A stretch of 61,921 bases of DNA from an archaeon (GTDB lineage: Archaea; Nanobdellota; Nanobdellia; Woesearchaeales; UBA9642), in the NCBI GenBank assembly GCA_043806035.1, contig JAZDHK010000019.1, forward strand, positions 1-61,921, written 5' to 3'. A model generated the notes under the pieces. It was not told the DNA's origin. It did not search any database and saw only the letters and a list, made by a program, of their open reading frames with translations. Position numbers and translations under genes: made by a program. Each line of letters starts with the position of its first letter. Position 1 is the stretch's first letter. This document shows, in pieces, positions 8,305-47,781 of this stretch.

Positions 8305-8925
8305 ATGAAAAAAGTAGCGCTTTTGCTTGCTGGACTCGCCCTTGCACTGCCTGCACAAGCAGACCTGCACGGCAACATCAAATATCTGCAAGCGATAGAG
8401 AAAAAATCAACGCTATGCTCCTATCCAGAAACCAATCTCTTCTACACTGCAGGCAAGATCGATGGCTATACGTATCTTGACGTGTACAACGTCGACGTGT
8501 ACAGTGATGGAAGCTATTATGGCAGAACGAGCCTCACTCGTGAGCTGGTTCCTTACCTATGTGCGAAAGTGGAAGGAGAGCATGACAGCAAACCGCTGAC
8601 AGATGCGGGCGTCGGTGTCACGGGAAAGTACGCGTATGGAACTGGTGATGCTAGTATGAGTCTTATGCCCTATTATCTTGGAGAGCACGGTCATGTTGGG
8701 AAGAAAGTGCTGCTGCAATTCACGTACGACCAGCGCTTGCCGTTTGGTTTTGCTTTTTCAACATTCGGAGAATGGAATGTGAAGACAAAGCAGTGGGGGT
8801 ATGGCGAGGCGGAACTCAGCAGGCGCTTCGGCATGCTCGGCGTTGGAATAAATGCTGCCCTGCTCAATAAGGCAAATCTTGTCCCGGACAAAGAACTTCG
8901 TGCTGTGCTGTCGCTCAACTTCTGA
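8305..8925 (+). CDS. Secreted protein with outer-membrane beta-barrel-like features
   Basis: Sec signal (AQA|D), alternating aromatic/Gly strands, C-terminal LRAVLSLNF ending in Phe. Confidence 0.55.
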   Translation: MKKVALLLAGLALALPAQADLHGNIKYLQAIEKKSTLCSYPETNLFYTAGKIDGYTYLDVYNVDVYSDGSYYGRTSLTRELVPYLCAKVEGEHDSKPLTDAGVGVTGKYAYGTGDASMSLMPYYLGEHGHVGKKVLLQFTYDQRLPFGFAFSTFGEWNVKTKQWGYGEAELSRRFGMLGVGINAALLNKANLVPDKELRAVLSLNF

Positions 8926-8935
8926 ATGAAGAACA

Positions 8936-9331
8936 CTAAAGTTTTCCCTGTCCGTGAATGGAATTGCCATCGAAATCAATGACGTTTGTGTAGCCAATGC
9001 GCAGATTGCCGTTTTGTTCAGGGACGAGATCAGCGACTTCCTTGCATCGAGATGTGAATCGCAAGTTTTCAAACGTCAATTCTGGTTTTGCTGCAAAAAG
9101 TACTGCGGTATAATCGATTTTTGGAGATTCGACTTGTATTGTGGAGTTGGGCTCCATGCCTATTGTCTGTCGTGATGCCATGAGGGCAGAAACGGAATGT
9201 CCCTTGATAAGATAGGGATCAAACCCTTCTTTTCGAATTGCATCAAATGCTTTTTTCGTGGTCGCATCAAGATTGTTCTCAGCGTGAGCGATGTACTCCA
9301 GTTTTTCTTCAGGAGAGATATTCATAATCAC
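8936..9331 (-). CDS. Hypothetical protein
   Basis: 131 aa ORF with AGGTG RBS. Confidence 0.6.
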   Translation of the reverse strand: MIMNISPEEKLEYIAHAENNLDATTKKAFDAIRKEGFDPYLIKGHSVSALMASRQTIGMEPNSTIQVESPKIDYTAVLFAAKPELTFENLRFTSRCKEVADLVPEQNGNLRIGYTNVIDFDGNSIHGQGKL

Positions 9332-9406
9332 CTGTGAGTGGTTATATTAATATAAATTTTTTGGTTCACCTGTAATTGACGGAAAAAAGAGTTCAGAGAA
9401 ACAACA

Positions 9407-10018
9407 TTACCTGCTCGAGTCCGCCTGTCTCTCGGTTTCGAGCTTCTTGGTTATTGCCAAAGAATTAGGAGAGAGCATGAATGCGTTTATGATTTCGTCT
9501 GCGATGCAGTCTTGGATCTTTCGTTTGCTTGAGAACGTCTTTTCGTACGCGCCCTGCACCATGAGCCGCAATACGAGATCTATCCTTCGCTGCGGGCTTG
9601 ATTCCACTGCTTTCGGATACCGTGCGCCACCATACTCGATCGTGATGATTTCTTCTCTCGTCGCCGCATTTTCTATTGCCTTGACGAAGACCTCGATGGG
9701 GTTCTTTTTCGTCTTCCGCTCGACAATCTCGAGCGCCTTTTCCATGATCTTGTAGAGTGTCGTCGCTTTACCCGAGCAGTGTCCTGAGGAGATCTTGTGT
9801 TTCTTTCCCTTATGGCCAGGAATCATCATCTTGTTCAGCAGTCGTTCGATGATGAACACTTTGGATTTGTAGAAACGATAGCCTGCATATCTTGCGCCCG
9901 TCTTGGGCACGAACACTGGCTTTGTGGTGATGTACCTTTCCAGACCGGGATCCTCAACCTTGATGTGGGTTGTCGGCCATCGATTGAATGCAAGAACTTC
10001 ATTCATCATATCACTCAT
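9407..10018 (-). CDS. rps7: 30S ribosomal protein uS7 (archaeal type)
   Basis: IIERLLNKMM, NPIEVFVKAIENA, YGGARYPKAVESSPQRRID and ERQADSSR motifs. Start set at the ATG overlapping the eL41 stop. Confidence 0.96.
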   Translation of the reverse strand: MSDMMNEVLAFNRWPTTHIKVEDPGLERYITTKPVFVPKTGARYAGYRFYKSKVFIIERLLNKMMIPGHKGKKHKISSGHCSGKATTLYKIMEKALEIVERKTKKNPIEVFVKAIENAATREEIITIEYGGARYPKAVESSPQRRIDLVLRLMVQGAYEKTFSSKRKIQDCIADEIINAFMLSPNSLAITKKLETERQADSSR

Positions 10019-10116
10019 TTGCTCGCACGCTTTTTCTTCTCTTTCTTCATGCGCTTGCGTTGCCACTTCCAGCGCATCTGACCCTTTTTCTTCCAGCGTC
10101 GGCTACTTCTCTTCAT
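10015..10116 (-). CDS. rpl41e: Ribosomal protein eL41 (L41e/eS32), not in the ORF track
   Basis: Translates MKRSSRRWKKKGQMRWKWQRKRMKKEKKKRASK*. ATGA overlap with rps7; TATA at ~10141. Confidence 0.88.
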   Translation of the reverse strand: MKRSSRRWKKKGQMRWKWQRKRMKKEKKKRASK

Positions 10117-14733: not shown

Positions 14734-15450
14734 TTATTTCAAGAAAAGCACTTTCTGGGTGAGCGCCTGTTCGGGGGTAGTTGCCTTGACGAAATACATG
14801 CCCGTCGCTGCATTAGTTGGCGTGAACAGGATAGTGTGCGTTCCCACGGGTGTTTGTCCATGATAGAGATTGGCGACCTTCCTTCCAGTAATATCGTACA
14901 CATCCAGATCGAGTTGCGTTGGCTTGTTTGCCGTGAAACTGATGCGTGTGCTCGCATTGAACGGGTTAGGATACGGCATGTTGAGCTGCAGGTCTTTTGG
15001 CAGTGCCGTCTGCCTGTCGTCAGCAGCATCATAGTGCACTTCCCCCTCAATCCAGATTGCCAGCTGCACGTATTGGGCGTGTGTCATCGTATACGTGGGA
15101 ATGATGAATACCCTGCCTGGCCCGACGCCGTTCTCCATGCCGTTCTGTATGGTCTCGTAGAAGAGGCTGTCGAATGTTGCACTGTTCGTATCGAGCGCAC
15201 AGCCTGCAGGCTCGAGGAATGCCCAGGCGTAGCGCATGGGATTGTGTGGCTGCATGTCGTTCGTCGTCACTGCTCCGGGCACCCAGGTCGTATCCCAGAT
15301 GGCGTTTTGGTTCTCGAGGTATACTTCGTGCTGCTGCAGCCAGGGCCGGACGCTGTTCGTTACGACGCTGTCGATGTTGGCATGCTGGTCGGCAAGAGCG
15401 CTGCTTGCGAGAATACAGATTCCTGCTATTACTTTTGTCGCCAAGCCCAT
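14734..15450 (-). CDS. Secreted protein with T9SS type A C-terminal sorting (Por secretion tail/FlgD-Ig) domain
   Basis: Signal peptide; C-terminal YPNPFN..TRISF...VYDITGRKV...GMYFVK...TQKVLFLK. Confidence 0.85.
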   Translation of the reverse strand: MGLATKVIAGICILASSALADQHANIDSVVTNSVRPWLQQHEVYLENQNAIWDTTWVPGAVTTNDMQPHNPMRYAWAFLEPAGCALDTNSATFDSLFYETIQNGMENGVGPGRVFIIPTYTMTHAQYVQLAIWIEGEVHYDAADDRQTALPKDLQLNMPYPNPFNASTRISFTANKPTQLDLDVYDITGRKVANLYHGQTPVGTHTILFTPTNAATGMYFVKATTPEQALTQKVLFLK

Positions 15451-15510
15451 CGTAGTATGTCACTACTGTTCAGTATTATAAAAATGTTTCGTTTTTTTCG
15501 ACGAGCACAA

Positions 15511-15699: not shown

Positions 15700-18600
15700 G
15701 TGCGCTCTAGACAAAACAGGAATGGCCACGGACTCTTGGCCGTACTGCTGGTGTTCTTCTTAGCTGCGGTCATTGCCGTCCATGCTCGATCCGCAGAAAT
15801 TATGCCAGTGACGTTTGACGATAAGCGTCCCATCGATGTGCTGCTCAACAACAACGATACGCCCATCGAGCAAGACCCAAAAATCTACGATTATTATTCC
15901 CCGAGAAACGTCTTCATCGTCTCTGATAATGACTGGAAGAATGTTCTTCCACTCGTTCCCGTGACGACGTGGACGTACGGCAGCATCATCCACGCCTATC
16001 CCACCCTGCTCCTGCACGACGAAGACAACAGGACATTGCTCATCAATTACGCCAGTGCACGCAACGGCGGCAGTGCCTACGCGCCGAGCAGCGCCCAAGG
16101 CTCATCCCCAAGTAATGTAATTGATGAGAATCCCAGCACGATATGGAACAACGGCAGGCTTGACAATGACACCATCACTATAGATTTGGGTGTTGTCAGG
16201 ACAGTAGACGAACTGCGCATCATGCAAGCCTGCGATTTGTACGGCTATAACATCAGCATCTCAACCGATAATATAACGTATGTTGCGCTCACGAGCGGCT
16301 ATTTCGACTATGGGCTGCTGCAGTACTTCGTCAGCCCGCAACGCCAAGCAAGATATATAGCCATCACGCTCAACGACCCCATCGAACGGCCGAACTGGAA
16401 GTGTCTGGGAGATGTTTCCGTCTATAATAATGCAGACAGGGTGAGCGTGCGGGGATTCGACCCTGACAGCCTCATCCAATTCCTGCAAATGTACGAGCCT
16501 GACCGCGTCACCATCGTCGGTGATACCGTGCAGGAATTTGACGACCTTCTTGTCGCCCCGCAACCCTTAGGTGCAGGATTGCAGGAGGACCAACTCGAGC
16601 GCATCTATCCTGCAGACCTCCCCAATTATTGGCGGCCTGCGCTGCTCACGCAAGTCATTCTTGTTGACAACAATTACGCTCGTGCACTGATCGCCAGCAC
16701 GTACGCCAGCTTGCTCAACGTTCCGCTCGTCATCAACGTCACGCCACCTGATCCGCGACGGCGAAGAGATGCGCTTGATGCCCTTGATACAATCACTGAT
16801 CCTGTACGAGTAGTGCCGTCAAACGTGAAACCTGTCACGGCAGTTACCGTAAGACCTGTGACGGCGAAGGAAACAGTAAGCGCACCAACACCACCGCCAG
16901 GAAATCCGCTCGACGACGTCTTCTACCCGAACACCCCTGCGATCTTCACCGATCGAGAGGTCATTCTCGTCGGAAATGTCAACTGTCCAGCAACGGCAAG
17001 TTCCTGCAGGCACATGACACTTGCCGAGATACAACAAGAATATGTAACCAGGACACAGACGGACAAAGTACTGCTGGTCAACAGCAGAGACTATTCCAGT
17101 GTTGACATGGATCAGGACTTCTTCACGGATAAGGGCACGTATCCCATCCACACATTATTCATCAAGCACAGCCTTGCAGCACCCTTCCTCGCCGGAGCAA
17201 AGCAGGAATTGCTCGTCAACAATCCTATCCTCACAGGGCTTGACGACAGCGCGTGCAACACCTCACCGGCATTCCTTGACGCCATAAGCACCACAGACCA
17301 CTTCATGGACGAGGTCATGACAACAATCATGGACAACAGAGGAAACTACCTCACCATCCTCTCCAGCCCGAAAGCAATCCCTGACTCAAAATTGAACTTT
17401 TGCGCAGGGGACCCGCTCCATCCAGAACGGGACAATACCCAACTCCGCATACCCCTCGACTACCAGTATGGCGTCAAAACATTCCCCTTCATCATCCCCA
17501 CGACGAGATTGCCTGAATACAGCCTCTACACGGGACGCATCTACGGCATCTCATCGACGGATGCGAGCAGCTACATCGCCAGAAGCATTTTTTACGATGA
17601 CCTCATGGACAGACTATATTCTGGCAGTTTCACCTCATTCAGCATAGGAACCTTCTGTTATAGCAACAATCCTGCCCAGCGTGCGCTGAATACGAGAAAT
17701 TATTTCCTGGAACACGACTACACGGCCATCTGCTCGAGCAACACGCCGCAGTACGCCTGTGACAGAGTGAGCGAGAATTCTGACGATTGGTTCAGCACAG
17801 AAGACCTCCAACTGCTCAACCACCAACAATTCATTACTTTCGAGGATCACGGCTGCACCGACTGTTGGGCAGAAGTCCTGCACACCTATCAGACGCCGGA
17901 GATGCAGCTTCCCATCGTCATCAGCCAGAGCTGCCTCACCAGCAACTTCTGGACGCCAAACAAGTATGGAACGTACACGATGAGCCATTACTTCTTGAGA
18001 AAAGGGGCAATGGGCTATTTTGGAGCGGTAGGGCTGACGTATGCAAACGGGATAACGTCCAGTTTCGGCCAGAGACTGACGCAGAATACCCGCCTGGACA
18101 GCCTTGGCATGCTTGGTTATTACTTGTTCAACTCTTGGGACGATACTACAACAATAGGTGATCCAACGCTCATCTTCAGGAAAAACCCGACAGAGGATTT
18201 TGTTCGGGAATGCAATGACGGCATTGACAATGACGGCGACGGCCATATTGATTATGAGTGGGACTGCGGCTGCACCAACGGCCCTATGAGTATCAGCGAA
18301 AGCCCAGGCAACAGGCCGGAAGCGCAATGCAATGACGGCATAGACAATAACGGCAATGGCCTTATTGACACGCAGGACAGGGCATGCACCATCATCGTCT
18401 GCTACAACAATGAGACGCTTCCGGTGAACAACTGCACAGATCTTATAGACAATGACAATGATGGCGGGATCGATTTCGAATCTGATCCTGCATGTCACGT
18501 CTCCTATACGGGAGGCGTCGGCTTCAACATGTATACTGATGAGGGTCCCGAATGCGATGATAACATAGACAATGATGGCGATGGCGACATCGATTGGGAC

Positions 18601-19359
18601 GGTGCAGGGCTTGCTGGTGCCGACGCGGCATGTGTCGAGCCATACTTAGCGCATGAAGGTCCCGAATGCGACGATGGCATCGACAATGACGGCGATGGCG
18701 ACACTGATTGGGAAGAGGACGCAGCCTGTTTTGGCTATGCGACATTCTACTTCGAAGGACCACCGTGCGATGACGGCATCGACAATGACGGCGATGGCAA
18801 CATTGACTGGGACGGCGCGGGGCAAGGACCTCCTGATGCAGCCTGCCGTGGACAACCGCAAGGAGAAGAATTCAGCATATGTGATGATGGCATTGACAAT
18901 GATGGCGATGGCAGCATTGACTGGGACGGAAAGGACGGGACAACTCCTGACGTGGGATGCAGAAATGCGTTAAGCACAAAAGAGGATCCTCAATGCAGCG
19001 ATGGCATAGACAATGATGACGATGATGATATCGACTATGAAGGAAGAAGCGCTGATCCGGCTTGCATCCACCCGTACGATGACCTGGAAGGAACGCCTTG
19101 CGACAACAGCATCGATGATGACGACGACGGCGATATTGACTGGGACGGCGTGTACAGGACGCTCGACCCCTACGCTCCCGATCCTGGCTGCAACGGCGAT
19201 CCAAATGGCATAGAGTGGACACAGTGCGATGACAATATCGATAATGACGAAGACGAAGGCGTCGACTGGGACGGCGTGAACGGCCAATTCCCCGTTGACA
19301 CGAGCTGTACCCATCCGTGGGATAGCGAAACAGGATGGCCATCAGGAGGTGATGGATGA
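15700..19359 (+). CDS. Secreted multidomain protein: cell-wall-binding-2-like, F5/8 type C (discoidin), peptidase C25 (gingipain)-like, Cys/Asp repeats
   Basis: SNVIDENPSTIW..ITIDLG..ARYI (discoidin); GRIYG, EDHG, SQSCLT, FLRKGAMGYFGA, IGDP (C25-like His/Cys dyad). Confidence 0.7.
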   Translation: MRSRQNRNGHGLLAVLLVFFLAAVIAVHARSAEIMPVTFDDKRPIDVLLNNNDTPIEQDPKIYDYYSPRNVFIVSDNDWKNVLPLVPVTTWTYGSIIHAYPTLLLHDEDNRTLLINYASARNGGSAYAPSSAQGSSPSNVIDENPSTIWNNGRLDNDTITIDLGVVRTVDELRIMQACDLYGYNISISTDNITYVALTSGYFDYGLLQYFVSPQRQARYIAITLNDPIERPNWKCLGDVSVYNNADRVSVRGFDPDSLIQFLQMYEPDRVTIVGDTVQEFDDLLVAPQPLGAGLQEDQLERIYPADLPNYWRPALLTQVILVDNNYARALIASTYASLLNVPLVINVTPPDPRRRRDALDALDTITDPVRVVPSNVKPVTAVTVRPVTAKETVSAPTPPPGNPLDDVFYPNTPAIFTDREVILVGNVNCPATASSCRHMTLAEIQQEYVTRTQTDKVLLVNSRDYSSVDMDQDFFTDKGTYPIHTLFIKHSLAAPFLAGAKQELLVNNPILTGLDDSACNTSPAFLDAISTTDHFMDEVMTTIMDNRGNYLTILSSPKAIPDSKLNFCAGDPLHPERDNTQLRIPLDYQYGVKTFPFIIPTTRLPEYSLYTGRIYGISSTDASSYIARSIFYDDLMDRLYSGSFTSFSIGTFCYSNNPAQRALNTRNYFLEHDYTAICSSNTPQYACDRVSENSDDWFSTEDLQLLNHQQFITFEDHGCTDCWAEVLHTYQTPEMQLPIVISQSCLTSNFWTPNKYGTYTMSHYFLRKGAMGYFGAVGLTYANGITSSFGQRLTQNTRLDSLGMLGYYLFNSWDDTTTIGDPTLIFRKNPTEDFVRECNDGIDNDGDGHIDYEWDCGCTNGPMSISESPGNRPEAQCNDGIDNNGNGLIDTQDRACTIIVCYNNETLPVNNCTDLIDNDNDGGIDFESDPACHVSYTGGVGFNMYTDEGPECDDNIDNDGDGDIDWDGAGLAGADAACVEPYLAHEGPECDDGIDNDGDGDTDWEEDAACFGYATFYFEGPPCDDGIDNDGDGNIDWDGAGQGPPDAACRGQPQGEEFSICDDGIDNDGDGSIDWDGKDGTTPDVGCRNALSTKEDPQCSDGIDNDDDDDIDYEGRSADPACIHPYDDLEGTPCDNSIDDDDDGDIDWDGVYRTLDPYAPDPGCNGDPNGIEWTQCDDNIDNDEDEGVDWDGVNGQFPVDTSCTHPWDSETGWPSGGDG
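18208..19308 (+). repeat. Ten intragenic CxDGIDNDGDGxIDW...C repeats (putative Ca-binding)
   Basis: Counted in the translation of 15700..19359. Confidence 0.9.
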
Positions 19360-20000
19360 TGAAATATCTTCTTGTTGCGTTCCTGCTCCTCTTGCCCCTT
19401 GCACACGCACTATCCGTCACTATAACGACTCCTGAACTGGTTAGTGATGGCGAGCACATCCGCTTCAGCTATACCATTCTCAACAACGCAACAGAGACCA
19501 TGACCATACGGCCATACATTGTCTGCAAGGATAATCCCGTTGGATATATCGTCGAGCAGAACATAACCGTAGAAGCAAATACAACATATTCGGGCACCCT
19601 TGTCGATTATGCCGTCACCAACCACATCCAACCAGGACCCTGCACGGCAATCCTGGAGCTTCCCCAATACAATCTCACGACGACCCACTCATTCCTCATC
19701 GATACGCAGCCCGTCATACGTACGCAGGTGATGACGTGCGCTGATTCCTCATGCGCTAGCCCGAGAAAAGTGTTCTTTCCCGGCGAAACCGTCTACGTCA
19801 GCGTAAGTACTCCTGACGGGTATGATCTTGACGTCCAAGGACTTGAAGTGTTGCATGGCATGGCGCAACTTGATGCAACGCTCGGCTATTATGCACTGCC
19901 TATCGAAAGCACAAGCCCATACTACAAGGGCGTTGCGCATGACAAAATAGAATATGCGGTCATTCCACAGCATCCCCGCATAGCACTCAAACGATTCTGA
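19356..20000 (+). CDS. Secreted hypothetical (Ig-like) protein
   Basis: Signal peptide (AHA|L); ATGA overlap with the upstream gene. Confidence 0.75.
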   Translation: MMKYLLVAFLLLLPLAHALSVTITTPELVSDGEHIRFSYTILNNATETMTIRPYIVCKDNPVGYIVEQNITVEANTTYSGTLVDYAVTNHIQPGPCTAILELPQYNLTTTHSFLIDTQPVIRTQVMTCADSSCASPRKVFFPGETVYVSVSTPDGYDLDVQGLEVLHGMAQLDATLGYYALPIESTSPYYKGVAHDKIEYAVIPQHPRIALKRF

Positions 20001-20901
20001 TATGTGCAATGATAGCCTGCTTGACTGCCTGCTCGTCATGGAATGATCCTAGGATAGGGAGCGGTTCTGCGATGTCCGTCTTGCTCTGGTAGATGAGGAT
20101 GGGCTTGTCGAACTTTTCCAAAGCATGCAGCAACGCCGTATTCTTTTCTGCGTCATCCGTGCAGTCCATCACGAGCACGATGAGTTCAGCCACGTATTTC
20201 ATCGCCAGATGCGCCTGCATCTCGACCTTGTTCATCTTCTCAGGCCTGTTCAGCGTTCCCGGCGTGTCGATGCACTGGATTTTCAGATGATGTGCGGTAA
20301 AATAGCCGATGTTCAACCTTTTTGTCGTGAATGCATACGCTGCTATCTCCACGTTCGCCCCCGTCAGTTTCTTGAGCAGGGTGCTCTTGCCCGCATTGGG
20401 AAAACCAGCGATAGCGATGGTGAACAATCCTTCCTTGATAGTAGGATAGTCCTGCATCACATAGCGTACCCGTTCTAGATAGACGAGATGTTTCTTGATC
20501 TGCTTGAAGACGCTGGCAAACCTTCCCAGATGCTCCCGCCGCAGCGCATATGCCTCCTTTTCTTCAGTACAGCGCAGGACTTTCCTCTTGTAGTCTTTTG
20601 CGAAAGACTCTTCTTTCTTCGCCGCCCAGTTGAGGCTGGCGAGCGATTTCTTGAGCAGATCATAGTCTACCGTTGACCTGATGAGCTCCTGATAGAATTC
20701 GTTCAGGTTGTCGATGCTCGGAAAATTCTTTATGATATTGCCGAGCAAGGATTTCGCCTTTTGGGTCATTCGATCAATGGCTGAGATGTGGCGTTGCTTG
20801 AGCAACCGCTTGTCCTTCTTCGTATTCTGGTCCTTGCCCGCCTTGATGCACTGATCCAGATAGAACTGTGCAGTCTCTATCTTAGCCATGACGAATGACA
20901 T
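19987..20901 (-). CDS. Nog1-family (Obg/HflX-like) GTP-binding protein
   Basis: GFPNAGKST, YAFTT, DTPG, SKTD; N-terminal FPSIDNLNEFYQEL helical domain. Confidence 0.9.
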   Translation of the reverse strand: MSFVMAKIETAQFYLDQCIKAGKDQNTKKDKRLLKQRHISAIDRMTQKAKSLLGNIIKNFPSIDNLNEFYQELIRSTVDYDLLKKSLASLNWAAKKEESFAKDYKRKVLRCTEEKEAYALRREHLGRFASVFKQIKKHLVYLERVRYVMQDYPTIKEGLFTIAIAGFPNAGKSTLLKKLTGANVEIAAYAFTTKRLNIGYFTAHHLKIQCIDTPGTLNRPEKMNKVEMQAHLAMKYVAELIVLVMDCTDDAEKNTALLHALEKFDKPILIYQSKTDIAEPLPILGSFHDEQAVKQAIIAHIRIV

Positions 20902-20925: not shown

Positions 20926-22308
20926 TTATAAATGCTTCTTTCGCGCGTAGATGAACGAGATCATGCCGATGATGATGGCTAACGCAATGAGGATGTACAG
21001 CCCCCACGTCCCGACCACCTTCGCCGTTCCGCCCTCCGTCGTCACTACCTTTCCTGGCGGTACGGCAGCTTCTCCCAACTGTCCTATGAGCAGTTCGCTC
21101 TGTATGTCATTCAGCAAGTCTCGCTTGTCTCCCGCAACAGCGAACGTGTAGCTTTTCTGCTCGTTAGGAGCCAGTTCAGCGAATGCAATGACGTACTCCG
21201 GGTCAGTGTTTGCAATGACAACCTGGCCTTCGGTGCTGACCTGGACCATGCTGGCATGTTCGGCAACGGTTTTTGGAATGGTGTCGTGCATGATGACCGT
21301 ATACAGTGTTCGTGTTCCTTTGTTGTGTATGGCCGTGGTGAAGAGGGTGAGACCTTCTGCAAATTCGGCGGTGCGTCTTGTTTCAAGCTCGCCAGCGGCT
21401 GCTGCTGCATTTTCCCGCAGGACAGCCACCTTTTGTTCGTCGATGGATCCAAGAACGCTTTCCAGCGATGCCATGAAGCCAGGAGCCTGCTGTACTTGTT
21501 CCAGCACACTGGGCAATGGAGTCATTTGCGTTGCATTCGTGACGTTCGTCGTTGCATTCGTGGCATTGCTTGGGACGGCAGCACCGCCTCCTCCCCCTCC
21601 AGTTCCTCCTTCCTCCTCATCTGTGCAGGTTGGGCAGGTTACCGAGAGCGTATCGCTTTCCGTATCCACGTTTGAGCTTGTCACCGTGATGGTTATTGTT
21701 TTTGTCGTGGTGAAGCTGCTTGCCGTTACTTGCCAACTCACGCCTGCACTCGAGCCTGCGTTGATGCTGCCTATGGTCTGGGATGCATCATCGGATGTGC
21801 TCAGGCCGCTCGGCAAGCTCAGCGTTGCTATCACGTTCTGGGCAGTTGTCTCACCTGTGTTCTGCACACTCACGCTCACGTCGAACGTCTCGCCATTCGT
21901 TGCTGTTTCCGATGCTGGTGACGCTGTAGCGGACAGTGCAGGAGCGAGGACTACGTTGAACGAGTTCGTGGTTGCCGTGCTCGGGCTGCCTGCGATGCTG
22001 ATCAGAACGCTCAATGTTTGGCTGGTGAGTTTCTCATTGGCAACAAACGTCGTCCATGAGACCGAGCTTCCGCTAAACGATTTTGAGCTTTGTTCGCTGA
22101 GGCTGAATCCTGAAGGAACGGTGACGGTTGCCGTGCCGCTTCCTGAAAGTCCAGAAACTGTCAAGGTGAAGGTGTTTCCCTTCATGACCGTTCCCGAATC
22201 CGCACCTGACTGCGTTATGGTTGCCGTGGCCGCAAGTGCGGTGGGCAGCAGGCAGAGAACGAAAAGGAGGGTGCAAACAATGCTTGTTTTTGTAGCGGTC
22301 ATCTTCAA
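20926..22308 (-). CDS. Surface glycoprotein-like protein with Ig/CARDB-like domains and C-terminal TM anchor
   Basis: Signal peptide, S/T-rich, VQNTGETTAQNV..LSLPSGL, poly-Gly linker, TM followed by RKKH. Confidence 0.8.
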   Translation of the reverse strand: MKMTATKTSIVCTLLFVLCLLPTALAATATITQSGADSGTVMKGNTFTLTVSGLSGSGTATVTVPSGFSLSEQSSKSFSGSSVSWTTFVANEKLTSQTLSVLISIAGSPSTATTNSFNVVLAPALSATASPASETATNGETFDVSVSVQNTGETTAQNVIATLSLPSGLSTSDDASQTIGSINAGSSAGVSWQVTASSFTTTKTITITVTSSNVDTESDTLSVTCPTCTDEEEGGTGGGGGGAAVPSNATNATTNVTNATQMTPLPSVLEQVQQAPGFMASLESVLGSIDEQKVAVLRENAAAAAGELETRRTAEFAEGLTLFTTAIHNKGTRTLYTVIMHDTIPKTVAEHASMVQVSTEGQVVIANTDPEYVIAFAELAPNEQKSYTFAVAGDKRDLLNDIQSELLIGQLGEAAVPPGKVVTTEGGTAKVVGTWGLYILIALAIIIGMISFIYARKKHL

Positions 22309-32477: not shown

Positions 32478-32484
32478 GGATATC

Positions 32485-33153
32485 ATGGAACTTGCTGCCT
32501 ATCAGAAAAAGATCCCTTCTGCAGTCTATGCGGTGTTGCAAGAGCGAAATTTTTTGACATTACGGCCTGCACAGTACAAGAGCATCGACGCAGGGCTTTT
32601 TGATGACAAGAACCTGCTCGTGTGCACGCCGACAGCATCAGGGAAGACGCTCGTCGCAGAGCTGGCAATGCTCAATGCCATCTTCCACGATAGAGGAAAG
32701 TGCGTGTACGTCGTACCGCTCAGGGCGTTGGCGAATGAAAAATATAAGGACTTCACGGCACGCTATGGCGCGAAGTTCAAGATCGCGATAACCTCGGGAG
32801 AGATTGACAGCGATGATGCCTATCTCGACAAGTATGACCTCATCATCACCACGTCAGAAAAATTCGATTCCCTGATACGGCATCACACGCCCTGGCTGCC
32901 AAAAGTGAAAGTGGTAGTTATTGATGAGATTCATCTCCTGAATGATGTCGAGCGCGGGCCAACGCTAGAAGTGCTCATCACCATTCTTCGTGAGAGCCTG
33001 CCGAAATTGCAGCTCATCGGCCTGTCAGCGACCATCGGCAATCCGAAAGAATTGGCTGGCTGGCTTGATGCAAAGCTCGTCCAGGACTCCTGGCGGCCCG
33101 TGCAGCTGGACAAAGGCATTTATTTCGAAGGAAAAATAGAATTCAGCAGATAG
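32485..33153 (+). CDS. Ski2/Hel308-like DEAD/DEAH helicase, first RecA domain only
   Basis: PTASGKT, PLRALANEK, DEIH, RGPTLE, LSAT, WRPV; stops at ~222 aa. Confidence 0.85.
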   Translation: MELAAYQKKIPSAVYAVLQERNFLTLRPAQYKSIDAGLFDDKNLLVCTPTASGKTLVAELAMLNAIFHDRGKCVYVVPLRALANEKYKDFTARYGAKFKIAITSGEIDSDDAYLDKYDLIITTSEKFDSLIRHHTPWLPKVKVVVIDEIHLLNDVERGPTLEVLITILRESLPKLQLIGLSATIGNPKELAGWLDAKLVQDSWRPVQLDKGIYFEGKIEFSR

Positions 33154-36535: not shown

Positions 36536-37057
36536 TCATGTTTTCGTTTTCGCAATCTCTTTCTTGAGTTCTTCAATGCTCTTCTGCAGGAATTCGACGG
36601 TTTTTTCGTTGTTCTGCTCGTTCATGAGCTGGCCGCATTCGGGGCATTTGAAGTTGAACTCTGCCGACCTGTCAAAATTCATCCTCGTGCAGGCGTTCTT
36701 GCACATGTAGAAGTAATTATTGTGCTCTTTGCTCAGCCGTTCCTCGAGCTTTGTCAACTTTGTCCTTTTCATCTTCGTCTCGAGATGCGGGATTGCCTCT
36801 TCATTGTAGTCCCAGTAGCAGATGTACCATCCCTTGACCTTGTCCTTTTTCCTGATGAATGTGACGAGATTGTGTTCGAGAAGCCTATACAGCACATTTC
36901 TTGTGTAGTGGATCTCTTGCTTGAGCATCTCAGCGATCTTGAATTCGGAAGCGTGCTTGTTCTTCTTGAGGAATTCGATGATGGTTATGGCTTCATCTCC
37001 CACGAGCTCTCGGATGATGTCATCCGCCAATTTTTTGGATATTTTTGCCTTTACCAT
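36536..37057 (-). CDS. tfe: Transcription factor E (TFIIE-alpha homolog)
   Basis: wHTH (SEFKIAE..RNVLYRL..KGWYICYW) plus Zn ribbon (C..C..F.CPECG). Confidence 0.93.
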   Translation of the reverse strand: MVKAKISKKLADDIIRELVGDEAITIIEFLKKNKHASEFKIAEMLKQEIHYTRNVLYRLLEHNLVTFIRKKDKVKGWYICYWDYNEEAIPHLETKMKRTKLTKLEERLSKEHNNYFYMCKNACTRMNFDRSAEFNFKCPECGQLMNEQNNEKTVEFLQKSIEELKKEIAKTKT

Positions 37058-40127: not shown

Positions 40128-40679
40128 ATGAAAAAACATAAAAAGGGCAAGGTGCAGGTAGCTTTGTGGGTGATTGCAGCACTACTGCTGTCCGCATGCA
40201 GTTCGCAATCGCAACAAATCATAACAAAGGCAAATACGACTGATACCATGAAACTCACCTCGCCCGCATTCAGCGAAGGACAACCCATTCCTGCGAAATT
40301 CACCTGCATGAGTTTTGACGTCAATCCGCAACTCACTGTCTCTGACCATCCTAAAGGGACGAAGAGCTTCGCCTTGCTCATGGACGACCCTGATGCGCCG
40401 ATGGAGACGTGGACGCATTGGATAGTGAAAGACATTCCTGCAGACACGGCGCTCATCCACGAGAATTCTGTTCCTGGAGAGCAGCTCGAGAACAGCTTCG
40501 GCAAAGAGGATTATGGCGGGCCATGCCCTCCCCGAGGTAAGCCTCATCGTTACTTCTTCAAGCTGTACGCGCTCAAAGTGGACAAACTTGATGCGCAGAA
40601 TGCGCGAGAATTTGCCCAGGAAGTTCAGAAGCAGAAGCTCGCAGAAGCCACGCTCATGGGAACCTTTCAAAAAGAATGA
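40128..40679 (+). CDS. YbhB/YbcL (PEBP) family lipoprotein
   Basis: LTSPAF, MDDPDAP..WTHW, YGGPCPP..HRYFFKLYAL; lipobox LLSAC. Confidence 0.93.
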   Translation: MKKHKKGKVQVALWVIAALLLSACSSQSQQIITKANTTDTMKLTSPAFSEGQPIPAKFTCMSFDVNPQLTVSDHPKGTKSFALLMDDPDAPMETWTHWIVKDIPADTALIHENSVPGEQLENSFGKEDYGGPCPPRGKPHRYFFKLYALKVDKLDAQNAREFAQEVQKQKLAEATLMGTFQKE

Positions 40680-41232
40680 TGTGATTGTTCTTTCTAGAAC
40701 ATCCTATGGAAAAAATTCGGAAATCTGGTTCGTCAGGCCTATCGCGGAATATCAGTTCGGTTTGTTCTGCATACAGCTCCTTGAGGTAGTCAGTGATGGG
40801 CGTGAATGATTCAAAACAGGCACGGCTGATATCAACGTAAGGAAGGGCCAATATCGCCATGTTTTTTTGAAGGTCTTCAGAAACGGCACATTCATCTCGT
40901 GTTCCTTCAACCACCGTGCAGTCTATGCTACCGAAGGTAATCTTGCCAGTCTTTATCTCAACCGTTTTTGGGTAGGGAATATTTCTGTAGGGGAAAAGAG
41001 TCAGTTTTCTCGACCACACATCCTTTCGTCGAATGCCATTGCACGTAACGGTTGCTCTTCCTCGTATGTAGAGTTTGTCCTTTTCGCGGAGGAAATACAG
41101 TCTTTTTGCTTGCGCAACGTATTTGACGATGCGTTCGTCCTCAGTCCTGTAACTGGTGCAGCGCAGCCACAATCGCATGCTCAGCCGTTCCGACAACAAT
41201 TCAAGTTGTGATTCCATGTTATCGTTGCTCAT
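40654..41232 (-). CDS. Tandem paralog 5 (B type) of an unknown family
   Basis: RGRAT..W..K...PY..IP.PKT and F.PI..L..LY shared with its neighbours. Confidence 0.7.
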   Translation of the reverse strand: MSNDNMESQLELLSERLSMRLWLRCTSYRTEDERIVKYVAQAKRLYFLREKDKLYIRGRATVTCNGIRRKDVWSRKLTLFPYRNIPYPKTVEIKTGKITFGSIDCTVVEGTRDECAVSEDLQKNMAILALPYVDISRACFESFTPITDYLKELYAEQTELIFRDRPDEPDFRIFSIGCSRKNNHIILFERFP

Positions 41233-41732
41233 GCATTCTCGACCTGTATTTTTCCATCGTTATAATCGGCAAGGATGAGTTTGTCGAGCGGGGAGAAGAC
41301 CTCATCTAGTACTGCACGAGTGACTGATATATTTTTATCCTGTGCTCTCACCCATATGCCTCCTTTATAATGTGCCCAGCAATCAATACCATTAGTTGTT
41401 TTGCCGCGAGAGATGAAATATTCGTGATTGTACGAACCTGACGCGATAGACCACAGCGGCGTATCTTTCACGTTTGTTTTCGGGCAGGGAATGATGGTGA
41501 ACGGATGCCATTGTATCTTGTTTTTCCAAACTCTCTTTGTCTCCCGTTCGTACGCAGTAAGTGTCGCCCTTCCACGGACAGCATCATCTTCCCTATAGAG
41601 TTGGATTGTCTCGCCGACATAAACGACAGATTTCTCGTCCTCCTCGGTCACAAGAATGCTGCGGAATCCCTCCTTGATGGTCTCCACTCTTGATTCGATC
41701 GGGAGCACGTTCTTGAGAATTTTGAGGATCAT
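41229..41732 (-). CDS. Tandem paralog 4 (B type)
   Basis: YER..RVWK..HPF..CP..W..SG..YKGGI..EVFSPLD. Confidence 0.75.
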   Translation of the reverse strand: MILKILKNVLPIESRVETIKEGFRSILVTEEDEKSVVYVGETIQLYREDDAVRGRATLTAYERETKRVWKNKIQWHPFTIIPCPKTNVKDTPLWSIASGSYNHEYFISRGKTTNGIDCWAHYKGGIWVRAQDKNISVTRAVLDEVFSPLDKLILADYNDGKIQVENA

Positions 41733-42202
41733 TTGGTTAATACCTTCGTGTAGATGTCAAGCAGTTTCGCTTCAAGCGGGCCGAAGACAAGCTCGAAGAG
41801 CTCTACAGAAAGGTTGACGCCTGCGTTGGCCGCATCGATATTGATTTTGCTACGATATGACTCTCTGTCTTTGAGGTCATTTTGCATGATTCCTTCTCTG
41901 ACGAGACAGATATACTCAGCGCTGAAGCTTTGCACATTTCCTGCATTGAATGTCCAAATTCTGTTTTGTGATGCGGGAATGATAATCGTCTTATTTCCGC
42001 CAAAACGTTTCTTCTCATACGTTGCGTATTCGTGCTGCATTTCAAGCTTTCTCAAGCAGACTACGCCGTAGATGTTGCAGTCGCTTTGAAAGTGAGCTGC
42101 ATCGATACTGCCCCGATACAGAACATCTTTCTCCTTCCCGGGAATGACGAAGTCATTGCAAAGGTTTTTCATGTCCAGTTTGGTTTCAAAGCCATCTTTC
42201 AT
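41729..42202 (-). CDS. Tandem paralog 3 (A type)
   Basis: LRK.E..EKK.FG..IP..Q..IW.F..G.MQN..SYR..VFGPLE. Confidence 0.75.
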   Translation of the reverse strand: MKDGFETKLDMKNLCNDFVIPGKEKDVLYRGSIDAAHFQSDCNIYGVVCLRKLEMQHEYATYEKKRFGGNKTIIIPASQNRIWTFNAGNVQSFSAEYICLVREGIMQNDLKDRESYRSKINIDAANAGVNLSVELFELVFGPLEAKLLDIYTKVLTK

Positions 42203-42223
42203 GTGTTCTCCTCCTAAGCTGCA

Positions 42224-42766
42224 TTATGTTCTAAGAATCCGCAAGTTGTCCATTAGGTACAGGCCGTTCCACACCACGGGCTTGCCCTCGTATATCCTTA
42301 AAAGCACGTCATCAATCGGTCCGAACACCTCTTCGAAGAGCTGCGGGGAAATGCCTGTGCCTTTTTCTTTTGCATGGAGACGTATGCCTCCTCTGTATTC
42401 GTAGTAGCGATCGTTGCCTATTACGGGTGTACTGTCGTGAATGAATACTGCACTGGGTCCTGATGAGAACGACCACACCTGCTCATCAGTTATCTTTTTT
42501 GTTGGACACGAGAGCATTTTGAAAGGAAACAAGCTGTATCTCGTCTTCCAGAGCAGTCTCTCTGTGCGCTCGTATTTTGCTAATATCGCCTGTCCAAAAA
42601 CAACTCTCGGAAATAGCCTGCTGCTGTGCAGAGAACATGCTCTTCCCTGATAGGCATAATTCTTTCCTTCTTCCTTCACGATAATGGCATTGCTTATCTC
42701 TTCAAGCAGGCCGGGATGCTTTGCATTCGTGACGATGCCCAGTTCAAGCGTTATCGGGTGTTTCAT
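42224..42766 (-). CDS. Tandem paralog 2 (B type)
   Basis: YER..LWK..FPF..CP..W..SG..YRGGI..EVFGPID. Confidence 0.75.
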   Translation of the reverse strand: MKHPITLELGIVTNAKHPGLLEEISNAIIVKEEGKNYAYQGRACSLHSSRLFPRVVFGQAILAKYERTERLLWKTRYSLFPFKMLSCPTKKITDEQVWSFSSGPSAVFIHDSTPVIGNDRYYEYRGGIRLHAKEKGTGISPQLFEEVFGPIDDVLLRIYEGKPVVWNGLYLMDNLRILRT

Positions 42767-43241
42767 GGTCGTCCTTCTTCATGGCAGCATTGTATGTTGC
42801 TACTAATCGTTCTTCGAGCGGATGAAAGACTTGGTCGAACAATGCAGCAGAAATGTTGATGCCCTTGTTGAGAGCAGATATGTTCAGTATACCTCTATAG
42901 GAACCAGGTTCGTAACCATTCTGCATCTTGCCACGCTCTATAATGCGCGTGGTCGACCGGTTTTTGTTATACTCCTCCGTATCAAACACCCAGATAGTCC
43001 GTTGTGCATCGGGAATGTACTTGGTCCTTGTGCCGAAGATGGTTTTCTTTTTCTCAACAAGTGTTTCATGATGCTCGTCTTTGCGGAGCACGACCCTGCC
43101 ATACAGACCATCCTCTTTAAATCGTAGATTTGTCATGGTGCCTGTATAGATGATCTTCTTATCTTTGCCGTCGGCGACCAATGTGTTCGTTAAATCTTCC
43201 AACTGTAATGTGCTTTCCAGCAATACTGAGACTTCTGTCAT
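42744..43241 (-). CDS. Tandem paralog 1 (A type)
   Basis: LRK.E..EKK..FG..IP..Q..IW.F..G.MQN..SYRG..VFHPLE. Confidence 0.75.
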   Translation of the reverse strand: MTEVSVLLESTLQLEDLTNTLVADGKDKKIIYTGTMTNLRFKEDGLYGRVVLRKDEHHETLVEKKKTIFGTRTKYIPDAQRTIWVFDTEEYNKNRSTTRIIERGKMQNGYEPGSYRGILNISALNKGINISAALFDQVFHPLEERLVATYNAAMKKDDHETPDNA

Positions 43242-45573: not shown

Positions 45574-46424
45574 GATTTCGGCTCGACATGGATGGTTATG
45601 TCCTTGACGTTCCTGTTCGCAGCCATGATCTTTCTTTTGACATCCATGGATAGTGCGTGTGCTTTCTTTATGCTGTATCGTGAGTTCACCTGAATGTGCA
45701 CTTCAGCAAATATCTTGTTGCCTGCACGCCTTGCTTTGAGCTTGTGATACGTTATCCCTCTGTATGTCTTAAGTATGGCGCGCATCTCCTCCATGGCCGT
45801 GTTTGTTGGCGTGTAGTCCATGAAGACATAGAACGCCTCCTTCATGAGATGCACGGAGATGTAGATCATGATCGCTGCAACGGCGTATGCGGCAAGGACG
45901 TCGCCAAGCGGCCAGCCCAGCCAGGCGAGGAACAAGCCGATGAGGACAGCTATGCTTCCGAGAACGTCTGTCGTAAAGTGTGCACTATCTGCTTCGAGCG
46001 CATGGCTTCCCCCTTCTTGCGCAGCGATTTTAGCGAGGTATTTTGAGGTGAACAACGTTATGGGGATGGTGAGTATCATGAGTGCTATGCCTATCTCAGA
46101 ATTCTTGACAATGACGGGATGAAGGAGTTTCTCCGTCGCCTCGTAGATGATGAAAAGCGCAGTGAGGATGATGAAGAGCGCCTGTAACAGAGAACTGAGA
46201 CTTTCGTACTTGTCATGACCGTACAAGTGCGTGTCGTCAGATGGCTTCTCTGCCATCCTGATGCCGAAATAGGCGAGCAGACTCGAGAACAAATCAAAAA
46301 GAGAATGCGCACTCTCCGCAAACAAGCCGACGCTTCTCGTGAGGATTGCCGCGACGATTTTGCTCAACAACAGCCCTACGTTGACAGAGATGGAGAGCGA
46401 TGCAGCTTTCAGCTTGGTTGCCAC
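45570..46424 (-). CDS. Cation diffusion facilitator (FieF-like)
   Basis: HSLFD, H.YGH.KYE, ADSAHFTTD, IHVEP. Confidence 0.93.
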   Translation of the reverse strand: MATKLKAASLSISVNVGLLLSKIVAAILTRSVGLFAESAHSLFDLFSSLLAYFGIRMAEKPSDDTHLYGHDKYESLSSLLQALFIILTALFIIYEATEKLLHPVIVKNSEIGIALMILTIPITLFTSKYLAKIAAQEGGSHALEADSAHFTTDVLGSIAVLIGLFLAWLGWPLGDVLAAYAVAAIMIYISVHLMKEAFYVFMDYTPTNTAMEEMRAILKTYRGITYHKLKARRAGNKIFAEVHIQVNSRYSIKKAHALSMDVKRKIMAANRNVKDITIHVEPKS

Positions 46425-46542
46425 GTCTTTTTGCTGGTTTCATGGTTTATTAATGTTTAGGAAACAGTTCTTGAGAAGGACTGGAAAAGCAATAGGTATA
46501 AATAGTCAAGAACAAATAACTACTAAGATTGCCGGGGGTAAC

Positions 46543-47403
46543 ATGTCTGATTATTTTAAGCAGCTTTTTGACCAAGCGCCCGTAGCCTATCAGAGCCTGG
46601 ATGCTGCAGGTTGTTTCTTGGATGTCAATAAGACCTGGCTCGACATTCTCGGTTACAAAAAAGAAGAGGTCATTGGAAAATGGTTCGGCGACTTCATTTC
46701 TCCTCGTCTCGTTGACGCATTCCGGGAACGATTCTCACGATTCAAAAAGAACGGAGAAGTTGAAGTGGATGTTGAGGTAAAGTGCAAGAACGGCACGTTA
46801 CGAACAGTGCACTTTATCGGAAAGGTAGGACATGATGAACACGGAAAGTTCAAGCAGACGCACTGCGTCTTCTTCGACATGACAGAACAGAAGAAGAAAG
46901 AGCAAGCCCTGATAGAGAGCGAGAAAAAGTATCGTACTATTGTCGAGACTGTGGCGGAAGGCGTGTGGGTCATCGATGAGAACGCAAACACAACGTTCGT
47001 GAATACGAAGATGGCAGTCATGCTCGGCTACACATACGAAGAAATGATGGGCAAACCGTTGTTCTCATTCATGGACGATCTTGCGAAAAAGGACGCAGAA
47101 TATTACTTTGAACGAAGGCGTCAAGGGATTGCAGAACAGCACGACTTTCGATTCAAGCACAAGAACGGCAAAGATGTCTGGACAATACTAAATACGAATC
47201 CTCTCTTCGACGACTCAGGAAATTTTCTTGGGGCGCTCGGCATGATAACTAACATAACAGAGCGCAAGCGTGCAGAACGGGAGATGCAGCAGAAGAATGA
47301 AGAACTCACTCGCTTCAACAAGCTAATCATCAACAGAGAGCTGAAGATGATCGAGCTGAAGGACAGAATACGTGAACTCGAACGGCAACTAGGCCAGCGA
47401 TAA
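46543..47403 (+). CDS. Tandem PAS/PAC protein with coiled-coil tail and no output domain
   Basis: Two PAS-PAC units (LGYKKEEVIGK; LGYTYEEMMGK..NITERK); ends RELKMIELK. Confidence 0.88.
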   Translation: MSDYFKQLFDQAPVAYQSLDAAGCFLDVNKTWLDILGYKKEEVIGKWFGDFISPRLVDAFRERFSRFKKNGEVEVDVEVKCKNGTLRTVHFIGKVGHDEHGKFKQTHCVFFDMTEQKKKEQALIESEKKYRTIVETVAEGVWVIDENANTTFVNTKMAVMLGYTYEEMMGKPLFSFMDDLAKKDAEYYFERRRQGIAEQHDFRFKHKNGKDVWTILNTNPLFDDSGNFLGALGMITNITERKRAEREMQQKNEELTRFNKLIINRELKMIELKDRIRELERQLGQR

Positions 47404-47415
47404 TCCAGAGCACGT

Positions 47416-47781
47416 CTAGTGCAATTTGTACTCGACAGGGATGAACACGGTAGACTCCACGGGATTTCCTTGGTGCATGGCTGGACTGAACACGTATTGG
47501 CAGGCGCAATCCATCGCCGAACTATCCAGGTCAGCCCTTCCTGATGACTCTTCGATAGAGACATCCGTCACTATGCCGTTCGTGTCGATAAGCGCGCACA
47601 CCACAACCCTGCCTTCCACATTTTCTTCAAGAGCACTTCTCGGATACGTGCACTCCACACTCGTCAGTAGTTGCGGAGCGGGCTCATACGTTGTCAGTTC
47701 ATGGCCTGCCTGCTGCGCATACGCGCCCATCGCGGTTATGCCAGCAAGCATACCACCAACCAAGACATCAAGCATCTTCAT
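47416..47781 (-). CDS. Secreted TonB C-terminal domain protein
   Basis: YPRSALEENVEGRVVV..IDTNG.V....ESSG..LD..A......FSPA...G.PV....PVEY; signal peptide AYA|Q. Confidence 0.88.
   Translation of the reverse strand: MKMLDVLVGGMLAGITAMGAYAQQAGHELTTYEPAPQLLTSVECTYPRSALEENVEGRVVVCALIDTNGIVTDVSIEESSGRADLDSSAMDCACQYVFSPAMHQGNPVESTVFIPVEYKLH

Follow-up and report, generated by a model that had tools for sequence, protein, structure and literature searches.

Exported proteins with an outer-membrane-type barrel, a type IX sorting tail and a TonB head encoded on one contig of a Woesearchaeales archaeon

Outer-membrane barrels, type IX secretion system (T9SS) sorting tails and TonB heads are markers of bacteria with two membranes (diderms). 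These three markers are natively encoded in one DPANN (Diapherotrites, Parvarchaeota, Aenigmarchaeota, Nanoarchaeota, Nanohaloarchaeota) archaeon of the order Woesearchaeales, in whose genome the corresponding machines were not found; to our knowledge, this order has no cultured members or known hosts. The stretch analysed, referred to as the window, is an entire contig of 61,921 bases (JAZDHK010000019.1 of assembly GCA_043806035.1; C19) from a genome (G000) of 1.50 Mb in 42 contigs that is rated as 93.7% complete with 2.03% contamination. An original prediction, made from the letters of the window, had placed a beta-barrel-like protein at 8305, a protein with a T9SS C-terminal domain (CTD) at 14734 and a TonB C-terminal domain (TonB_C) behind a signal peptide at 47416, and had read them as a toolkit acquired from a diderm bacterium resembling the Fibrobacterota–Chlorobiota–Bacteroidota (FCB) group. 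All three genes are present at these positions. Each of them has a TATA-like box and native composition, and each of the products (P0001, P0002 and P0003) carries a Sec-type leader. The AT-rich TATA-like sequences that had been noted upstream of the CTD and TonB_C genes lie on the minus strand at 15476–15485 and 47812–47820. The features of the three genes are as follows.

About 7911–7918, plus strand: TATA-like box TTATAAAT, read from the sequence, about 20 nt 5' of an AGGAGG and the ATG at 7938
8305–8925, plus strand: P0001, predicted exported beta-barrel of 12 strands resembling outer-membrane proteins; 206 aa, leader MKKVALLLAGLALALPAQA, C-terminus LSLNF
14734–15450, minus strand: P0002, exported CTD protein; 238 aa, leader ending SSALA/DQ, orphan passenger of about 135 aa (residues about 21–159), T9SS type A CTD
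14749–14973, minus strand: CTD of P0002, residues 160–234, ending 4 residues before the stop
15476–15485, minus strand: TATA-like box ATTTTTATAA, read from the sequence, 26–35 nt 5' of the P0002 ATG; putative function
47416–47781, minus strand: P0003, exported TonB_C protein; 121 aa, leader ending TAMGAYA/QQ, followed by the TonB C-terminal domain
47786–47790, minus strand: GGTGA, Shine-Dalgarno-like site of the P0003 gene
47812–47820, minus strand: T-rich TATA-like stretch, 31–39 nt 5' of the P0003 ATG; putative function

The three exported proteins

P0001 has no Pfam family (E ≤ 1) and no NCBIfam family. Its AlphaFold2 model, computed from a 79-row alignment, has 12 strands (predicted local distance difference test score, pLDDT, 92.4; predicted template modelling score, pTM, 0.83). 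A Foldseek search of the PDB with this model gave 26 matches at E ≤ 1e-3, headed by Tsx with a template modelling (TM) score by query of 0.60–0.62. Outer-membrane barrels (Tsx 1tlw, PcoB, KdgM, NanC and the intimin/invasin beta-domain) form the great majority of the rows examined, joined by two designed transmembrane barrels, so that model and fold matches bear out the proposed barrel. In addition, the neighbours of the ESM Atlas model of P0001 are clusters of DUF5020, DUF481, TorF-like and KdgM proteins (TM 0.69–0.84).

The family around P0001, as gathered by an exhaustive HMMER search, comprises 125 cluster representatives at E ≤ 1e-3, of which 68 reach E ≤ 1e-10; nearly all of them measure 190–240 aa and align end to end, and the closest is 38% identical. 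The terminal Phe is invariant in 17 of the 17 nearest members. One face of the strands has a family-mean hydropathy of +1.22 and bears 3 charged residues among 65 in P0001, the opposite face −1.18 and 23 among 65. The hydrophobic face would be expected to point outward, because this face is rich in Gly and Ala, with which a 12-strand barrel that lacks an inner helix cannot pack its lumen. Three further leader-bearing proteins with aromatic ends and no Pfam family are possible extra barrels: L044:7100–8215 in the genome G121 (ending in SYKF), which adjoins a barrel-family gene, and G000:C15:26398–27297 (GIKF) and G000:C42:18157–18603 (HVNF) in the genome studied here.

The barrel gene is preceded by a short open reading frame (ORF).

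7938–8300, plus strand: P0058, ORF of 120 aa with no Pfam family and only a sub-threshold NCBIfam match

This ORF ends 4 nt before the barrel gene, with its stop overlapping the GGTGA Shine-Dalgarno-like site of the latter. Because of this spacing the two genes appear to be co-transcribed, and the TTATAAAT box is the likely promoter of a two-gene unit at 7938–8925.

P0002 is identified as a CTD protein by two curated models. Por_Secre_tail (PF18962) matches residues 160–234 with 38.8 bits against a cut-off of 27 (41.4 bits in the genome search) and covers profile positions 2–73 of 75, and TIGR04183 scores 44.2 bits against a cut-off of 23. The T9SS-CTD protein proposed at this position is thus corroborated by two matches over cut-off, in a terminal position and behind a Sec leader. 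PNPFN, G189, G217 and Y219 are invariant in a 56-row alignment of CTDs. Residues 150–238 are modelled by AlphaFold2 as a beta-sandwich with pLDDT 91–98, whose fold matches solved CTDs, namely the T9SS-bound 8glk_D (TM by target 0.69), 8gl6_D and RgpB 7pq4. No sequence match of P0002 to any solved structure was found. Its 53 database relatives share the tail only (33–76% of the query covered, mostly 33–46%), and those that are named belong to the Calditrichaeota, Marinimicrobia, FCB group, Ignavibacteria and Chlorobi, with 26–43% identity. The passenger has a pLDDT below 50, no homologues in the database or in BLAST searches against related archaeal CTD proteins, and no usable Atlas hit.

The divergent neighbour of the P0002 gene encodes a large exported protein.

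15700–19359, plus strand: P0057, 1219 aa, exported; F5/8 type C domain, gingipain-type Peptidase_C25 and a run of CxDGIDNDGDGxIDW acidic double-disulfide repeats

The C25 peptidase of P0057 was considered as a PorU-like sortase of CTDs and rejected, as there is no match to PorU (NF033707). As a reader of CTDs in general, C25 was also rejected: of 101 genomes in the order, 11 have C25 and 13 a CTD over cut-off, both being present in G000 and G100 alone, and C25 is missing from the closed genome G016, which has 4 CTDs.

P0003 matches TonB_C (PF03544) at residues 44–120 with 65.2 bits against a cut-off of 24.6, over profile positions 3–79 of 79, as well as TIGR01352 with 52.3 bits and the solved TonB2 structure 2k9k (E 2.7e-6), with the YP motif aligned. 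Together these matches substantiate the predicted TonB domain behind a signal peptide. The protein has neither a membrane anchor nor a proline-rich arm, and about 20 residues separate leader and domain. Near relatives were not found in a word-indexed database, in searches for proteins of near length or longer. Directly upstream of the P0003 gene lies a gene for a bacterial-type GpsA (47872–48882, minus strand), which scores 242 bits with NF000942, below the cut-off of 257 bits.

A second TonB_C gene of the genome lies on contig C1. Its product, P0059, is 270 aa long, has a membrane helix, a proline-rich arm and a TonB_C domain, and shares 32% identity with P0003 across this domain. This gene adjoins a sigma-70-family gene: at G000:C1:48891–51308 (L015), a sigma-70-family gene with regions 2, 3 and 4, an MgtC gene and the full-length TonB-like gene stand side by side, in a region of native-looking composition that carries a D-Ala-D-Ala ligase and an LPG_synthase_C-like gene further along. 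Sigma-70 has been reported as a bacterial feature of Woesearchaeota (PMC8204110).

Residence in the archaeal genome and spread among relatives

That the three modules lie among archaeal-type genes, as originally stated, is confirmed by Pfam scans of 63 ORFs of the window, which place archaeal and eukaryote-type markers along the contig. In addition to the following, these include arginyl-, tyrosyl/tryptophanyl- and prolyl-tRNA synthetases.

9407–10066: ribosomal protein S7p/S5e (Pfam)
19987–20901: NOG1-type GTPase (Pfam)
29665–30081: ribosomal protein S6e (Pfam)
36536–37057: TFIIE-alpha (TFE-alpha; Pfam)

The composition of the three genes is likewise that of their surroundings. The tetranucleotide distance of 3-kb segments at the three genes to the rest of the genome falls between the 5th and the 50th percentile, and a repeat against the whole genome placed them at the 6th, 46th and 9th percentile; the regions of the paralogues on C1 and C31 lie at the 29th–59th. 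Atypical composition is confined to the final 12 kb of the window (81st–98th percentile).

Several other parts of the contig are of interest in their own right. The atypical part (49500–61900) has a low GC content of 0.37–0.46 and carries two pairs of HEPN and nucleotidyltransferase genes (52587–53727 and 56369–57470), two DUF6036 nucleotidyltransferases, a DUF4037 protein and a TrmB-like helix-turn-helix gene; it looks like a toxin-antitoxin or defence island. At 20926–29405 (minus strand) a leader-bearing giant of 2366 aa, with weak MG2 and Big_1 matches, is followed by a DUF11/CARDB protein of 460 aa, forming a surface-protein cluster. An ORF of 243 aa at 32422–33153 (plus strand), which consists solely of a DEAD/RecA1-type helicase domain, overlaps the end of the arginyl-tRNA synthetase gene. 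Five adjoining ORFs of 157–192 aa at 40654–43241 (minus strand) have no match over Pfam cut-offs and one sub-threshold match to EELM2. A FabH-like ketoacyl synthase III gene lies at the contig end (60551–61561, minus strand), and together with GpsA it represents bacterial-type lipid genes in an archaeon, consistent with PMC8204110.

The spread of the modules was surveyed in 101 genomes of the order (one per family, 0.6–2.7 Mb), in 401 genomes of the phylum that include 11 of the own family, in a separate own-family sample of 19 genomes, and in 531 FCB genomes. The latter come from three phyla (301 + 151 + 79) and are centred on CTD-bearing bacteria, the centres having been picked via loci titled Ignavibacteriaceae, Fidelibacterota and Caldithrix.

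The barrel survey used a profile of the 79-row alignment, for which the archaeal samples served as positive control. Barrels were found in 6/101 genomes of the order, five strongly (G000, G005, G021, G060 and the single-contig G097) and one weakly (G080), and in 19/401 of the phylum, among them 7 of the 11 own-family genomes and three from other orders of the class. None of the FCB genomes has the family (0/301, 0/151 and 0/79 in the three phyla; other bacterial phyla were not sampled), and an exact-sequence look-up of 20 barrel members returned a single taxon name, Nanoarchaeota archaeon. A TrmB-family regulator stands near the barrel gene in four of nine loci, three times as the divergent immediate neighbour and once one gene away; the copy in the window has no such neighbour. 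As far as searched, the barrel thus appears to be an old and patchy family that is present in the archaeal phylum and not in the sampled FCB genomes, and among the genomes sampled there is no sign of its recent import from bacteria.

CTDs are far more common. They occur in 26 of the 101 genomes of the order at E ≤ 1e-3 and in 13 over cut-off (G000, G014, G016, G031, G036, G041, G042, G044, G060, G061, G069, G087 and G100), and in 15/19 own-family genomes at E ≤ 1e-3 and 11/19 over cut-off. The genome studied here has a second CTD protein of 414 aa on contig C31, the closed G016 has four, and G121 (6 contigs, 100% complete) has five matches. The position of the domain was read in 24 distinct archaeal proteins with a profile built from 55 tails, and in 20 of these it lies within 16 residues of the stop. 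The best match of an archaeal tail was a bacterial-type seed in 9 of 11 cases and another archaeal tail in 2 of 11, in a comparison whose seeds were chosen as P0002 relatives, for which reason the best hits cannot separate one transfer from many.

TonB_C is rare, with 2/101 carriers in the order and 2/19 in the own family. Besides G000, the carrier in the order is G042 (86% complete), with tandem TonB-like genes on a contig whose archaeal origin is not confirmed. The other own-family carrier, G446, encodes a short form of 165 aa with a similar leader, 40% identical to P0003 over the domain.

The spreads of the three modules hence differ by more than an order of magnitude. All three coincide in G000 alone among the 101 order genomes. 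Outside it, one genome (G060) combines a barrel with a CTD over cut-off, and one (G042) combines TonB_C with a CTD. These differing spreads, with G000 as the sole genome having all three, point to three independent items. The coherent toolkit of the original prediction is accordingly not borne out by the order survey, in which there is no co-occurrence beyond G000. Its claim of an FCB origin divides: the modules are of diderm-bacterial type and native in an archaeal chromosome, and the nearest named relatives of the CTD are FCB bacteria, while a single donor is not supported, given the barrel (0/531 FCB genomes).

Chance resemblance is excluded by hidden Markov model scores that exceed curated cut-offs together with the recurrence of the same families in related genomes. 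The same recurrence bears on the integrity of the assembly. A chimera or contaminated bin might be suspected in a metagenome-assembled genome of 42 contigs with 2.03% contamination and low depth in the only run that contains it, but this is hardly credible, since archaeal genes flank each of the three genes on the same contig, the composition is typical of the genome, a 383-base contig from another assembler spans 8084–8466 without differences (probably from the same sample and therefore not independent), and the families recur in closed relatives. Chimerism, which the original prediction had named as a possible refutation, can therefore be set aside. The public reads come from one study, probably that of the source sample, and gave contigs of at most 833 bases at low depth, informative at short range only, with 0.55 of the words recovered. 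More weight against a chimera is carried by the recurrence in closed relatives; single-contig or near-complete relatives with the families are G097 for the barrel, G016 with 4 CTDs and G121 with 5 CTDs.

The machines with which the three modules work in bacteria were searched for in the genome with, for each family, 14 named genomes as controls. Omp85/BamA (PF01103; control 7/14), MotA_ExbB (control 9/14) and the barrel of TonB-dependent receptors (control 3/14) have no match in this genome, and ExbD has only a sub-threshold match (E 0.03) with two stops (control 8/14). SprA/Sov, the translocon of the T9SS, was found in 0/5 archaeal CTD-bearing genomes (G000 and four others of the order) and in 5/5 CTD-carrying FCB genomes used as positive control. 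GldM and GldL gave nothing over cut-off in the same five archaeal genomes, and the PorK, PorN, PorU and PorV models were not searched genome-wide. The check that had been proposed for BamA, PorK, PorN, ExbB and ExbD therefore stands for BamA and ExbB, with ExbD giving a broken, sub-threshold match, and does not extend to PorK and PorN. Among 28 of 215 leader-bearing ORFs, picked by a crude rule that missed P0002 and P0003, Pfam detected no other diderm-type family of the outer-membrane, Lpt, Lol or Tol kind. The genome has no match to the SLT murein transglycosylase; it does encode a VanY/M15-type peptidase, on another contig. Taken together, we are highly confident that the three are real native genes with separate histories and without machinery of their own.

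Possible roles outside the cell

Each of the three proteins would be exported by Sec and would act outside the cell on its own, as a module of a two-membrane envelope put to use without it. An exported barrel would be unsuited to the energised membrane of the archaeon itself, which it would harm. It may instead enter another lipid layer at the cell surface without the beta-barrel assembly machinery (BAM), most plausibly the membrane of an attached partner or else an undescribed outer layer, and form a small solute channel like Tsx or KdgM. The CTD would be retained as an Ig-like domain at the C-terminus by which the passenger is anchored or displayed at a surface. Its occurrence across the family and its terminal position in nearly all proteins make it probable that it still serves as a tag, with a reader that is not a T9SS of the archaeon. 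The bare TonB_C could be secreted to serve as a strand-binding head for docking to a partner protein.

The strength of this reading differs between its parts. A free-standing extracellular use of the three proteins is fairly probable. The reading as a whole, in which the three are intact, long-resident and mutually unrelated genes of a Woesearchaeales-type DPANN archaeon that has no machine for them, each working alone outside the cell, is favoured by a little over even chances. The archaeon is probably partner-dependent, and a bacterial partner is plausible; that the target of the proteins is a diderm bacterial partner is doubtful. The retention of CTDs (15/19) and barrels (7/11) across the family argues for selection.

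A number of observations weigh against this reading. The outward orientation of the hydrophobic face of P0001 was inferred rather than taken from coordinates, and embedding in a membrane is a prediction. Many unrelated Ig-like folds match the CTD model as well as or better than the solved CTDs do; the fold match being unspecific, the tie to T9SS rests on the sequence motifs. In 4 of the 24 archaeal proteins (loci L009, L011, L013 and L058 of G060, G014, G031 and G286) the CTD-like domain is internal, near the N-terminus, in a layout of leader, small CarboxypepD_reg-like segment, CTD-like domain and a further 400–500 residues, which is more in keeping with a plain structural Ig domain than with a tag. 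CTD counts are highest in G442 (15) and G444 (8), two bins contaminated at 4% and 6%, respectively, and these values were discounted. The machine negatives stem from a genome that is 93.7% complete and was searched without the four Por models. Finally, the synteny of the window is absent from four same-family barrel loci: a tblastn search with 16 window proteins matched solely the barrel itself, in one of the four loci and at 23% identity. Synteny was therefore rejected as proof of vertical descent, and the case for long residence rests on family spread and composition.

The best surviving alternative, which is nevertheless rather unlikely, is that the archaeon's own envelope includes a second, outer layer that contains lipid and has the barrel as its porin, with the CTD and TonB_C proteins working in the space between. 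Such a layer would suit the presence of the barrel in 7/11 same-family genomes and the TrmB neighbours in 4/9 loci, which resemble those of housekeeping envelope genes, and it could accommodate the full-length TonB-like protein on contig C1 and the bacterial-type lipid genes (GpsA and FabH-like) of the window. However, neither an insertase (Omp85) nor a motor was matched, with ExbB absent from the search results and ExbD broken and sub-threshold, and the patchiness of the barrel (6/101 in the order, 19/401 in the phylum) would be odd for an essential part of an envelope. The literature passages searched make no mention of an outer membrane in this group.

The proposal of one FCB-like donor, whose toolkit is aimed back at the same kind of host (the barrel folded by the host BAM, the CTD handled by the host T9SS and TonB_C engaging host TonB-dependent receptors), is unlikely. 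It is in keeping with the relatives of the CTD tail in Calditrichaeota, Marinimicrobia, Ignavibacteria, Chlorobi and the 'FCB group' at 26–43% identity, with the machinery not found in the genome itself, with the VanY/M15-type peptidase, which would act on bacterial wall peptides, and with the bacterial hosts that have been proposed for Woesearchaeota in two papers (PMC8204110, PMC9723730). It is opposed by the occurrence of the barrel in 0/531 FCB genomes compared to 19/401 of the archaeal phylum, by modules that do not travel together (all three in G000 only, among 101 genomes of the order), by a P0002 passenger and a P0003 without near relatives in bacteria, and by a fully native composition with no signal of recent import. 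Furthermore, a cell outside does not reach the periplasm, the side from which BAM, the recognition by T9SS and TonB boxes all operate.

A bolder version, best regarded as a long shot, would place the reading of the tails at the cell surface. The CTDs would be read by the surface-exposed T9SS attachment complex of a partner (the PorU sortase and PorV), which would fix the archaeal proteins covalently, the barrel would insert itself to form a feeding pore in the outer membrane of the partner, and the secreted TonB_C head would grip strands of the TonB-box type in envelope proteins. If true, FCB bacteria would be the target of a kit for contact and feeding that is made from the partner's own address labels.

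That the genes are inert, functionless leftovers of gene transfer is very unlikely: the orphan passenger of P0002, which has no confident fold, and the rarity of TonB_C might be read in this way, but the frames are intact, the profiles are matched from end to end (2–73 of 75, 3–79 of 79, and the barrel at full length), the residues invariant in the families are kept together with leaders and promoter-like elements, and CTDs and barrels are retained in 15/19 and 7/11 genomes, respectively.

Compared to these alternatives, three separate exported proteins used on their own remain the preferred reading. It raises the question of which membrane and which reader the modules use, and bears on the contact of Woesearchaeales with other cells. 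It also matters for whether barrels can be inserted in the absence of BAM, and CTDs recognised in the absence of a resident T9SS. The canonical T9SS tails are a trait of the whole family (15/19 genomes), and one near-complete genome has as many as 5 of them.

Comparison with known systems

Bacterial hosts have already been proposed for Woesearchaeota in print, on the basis of other evidence. Large extracellular proteins with murein transglycosylase domains in Woesearchaeota and Pacearchaeota (PMC8204110) and 'vampiristic' gene sets of Woesearchaeota (PMC9723730) are taken by their authors to hint at bacterial partners or prey, and PMC12352652 likewise suggests bacterial partners or prey. The gene sets of the first two papers resemble the proteins described here in being extracellular and of bacterial type. 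They differ in comprising wall-cutting enzymes and a TlyC-type haemolysin. An SLT match is absent from the present genome. The passages searched in PMC9723730 do not contain 'porin', 'outer membrane', 'TonB' or 'beta-barrel', and those in PMC8204110 contain neither 'outer membrane' nor 'secretion'. A full-text literature search, which did not cover supplementary tables, found no paper that joins Woesearchaeota with T9SS or TonB, or DPANN with type IX secretion. On beta-barrels or outer membranes in DPANN, the passages searched gave one relevant remark, on a possible distant PopA relative in Altiarchaeales. Compared with the literature found, the new elements are family-wide tails of the T9SS type without a T9SS, a stand-alone secreted TonB_C, and a barrel family that the archaeal phylum has and the FCB genomes searched lack.

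P0002 has the architecture of T9SS type A cargo such as RgpB (7pq4) and the proteins with the NucA and RemA CTDs (8glk, 8gl6). Both have a Sec leader, a passenger and a terminal CTD of 75 aa with PNPFN, GxY and a K-x-hydrophobic-K end in a beta-sandwich. The difference lies in the surroundings, as SprA, GldM and GldL were not found in the genome or in four related CTD genomes, and P0057 is not PorU.

P0003 shares with TonB (E. coli TonB and Vibrio TonB2, 2k9k) the complete C-terminal domain with its YP motif. It differs in that a cleavable-looking leader takes the place of the anchor helix, there is no proline-rich arm, and no match to ExbB or a receptor was found in the genome.

P0001 resembles the small 12-strand channels Tsx (1tlw), KdgM (4fqe/4pr7), NanC (2wjr) and PcoB (7pge), and the DUF5020 and DUF481 proteins, with which it shares a signal peptide, a length of about 200 aa, 12 antiparallel strands, dyad-amphipathic strands and a terminal Phe. 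The query-normalised TM scores to the solved channels are 0.53–0.62 (Foldseek) at identities of 8–13%. The 79 family members gave no match at E ≤ 1 to KdgM/NanC (PF06178), DUF5020 (PF16412), DUF481 (PF04338) or other porins, and the only barrel-related Pfam matches among them were those of single members to LptD (E 0.17) and Phage_OMP (E 0.3). P0001 further differs from the known channels in its archaeal host, in which no Omp85/BamA was found, and in the absence of its family from the 531 FCB genomes sampled. Going by its modelled structure, P0001 would thus work like a small 12-strand porin without being a sequence member of a named family.

For a barrel in a foreign membrane, the predator Bdellovibrio offers a parallel: its porin-like barrel PopA is reported to enter the membrane of the prey (PMC12228718). 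PopA is a pentameric bowl made by a diderm with BAM and has no sequence or architectural relation to P0001; what it provides is a precedent for a barrel that acts in the membrane of another cell.

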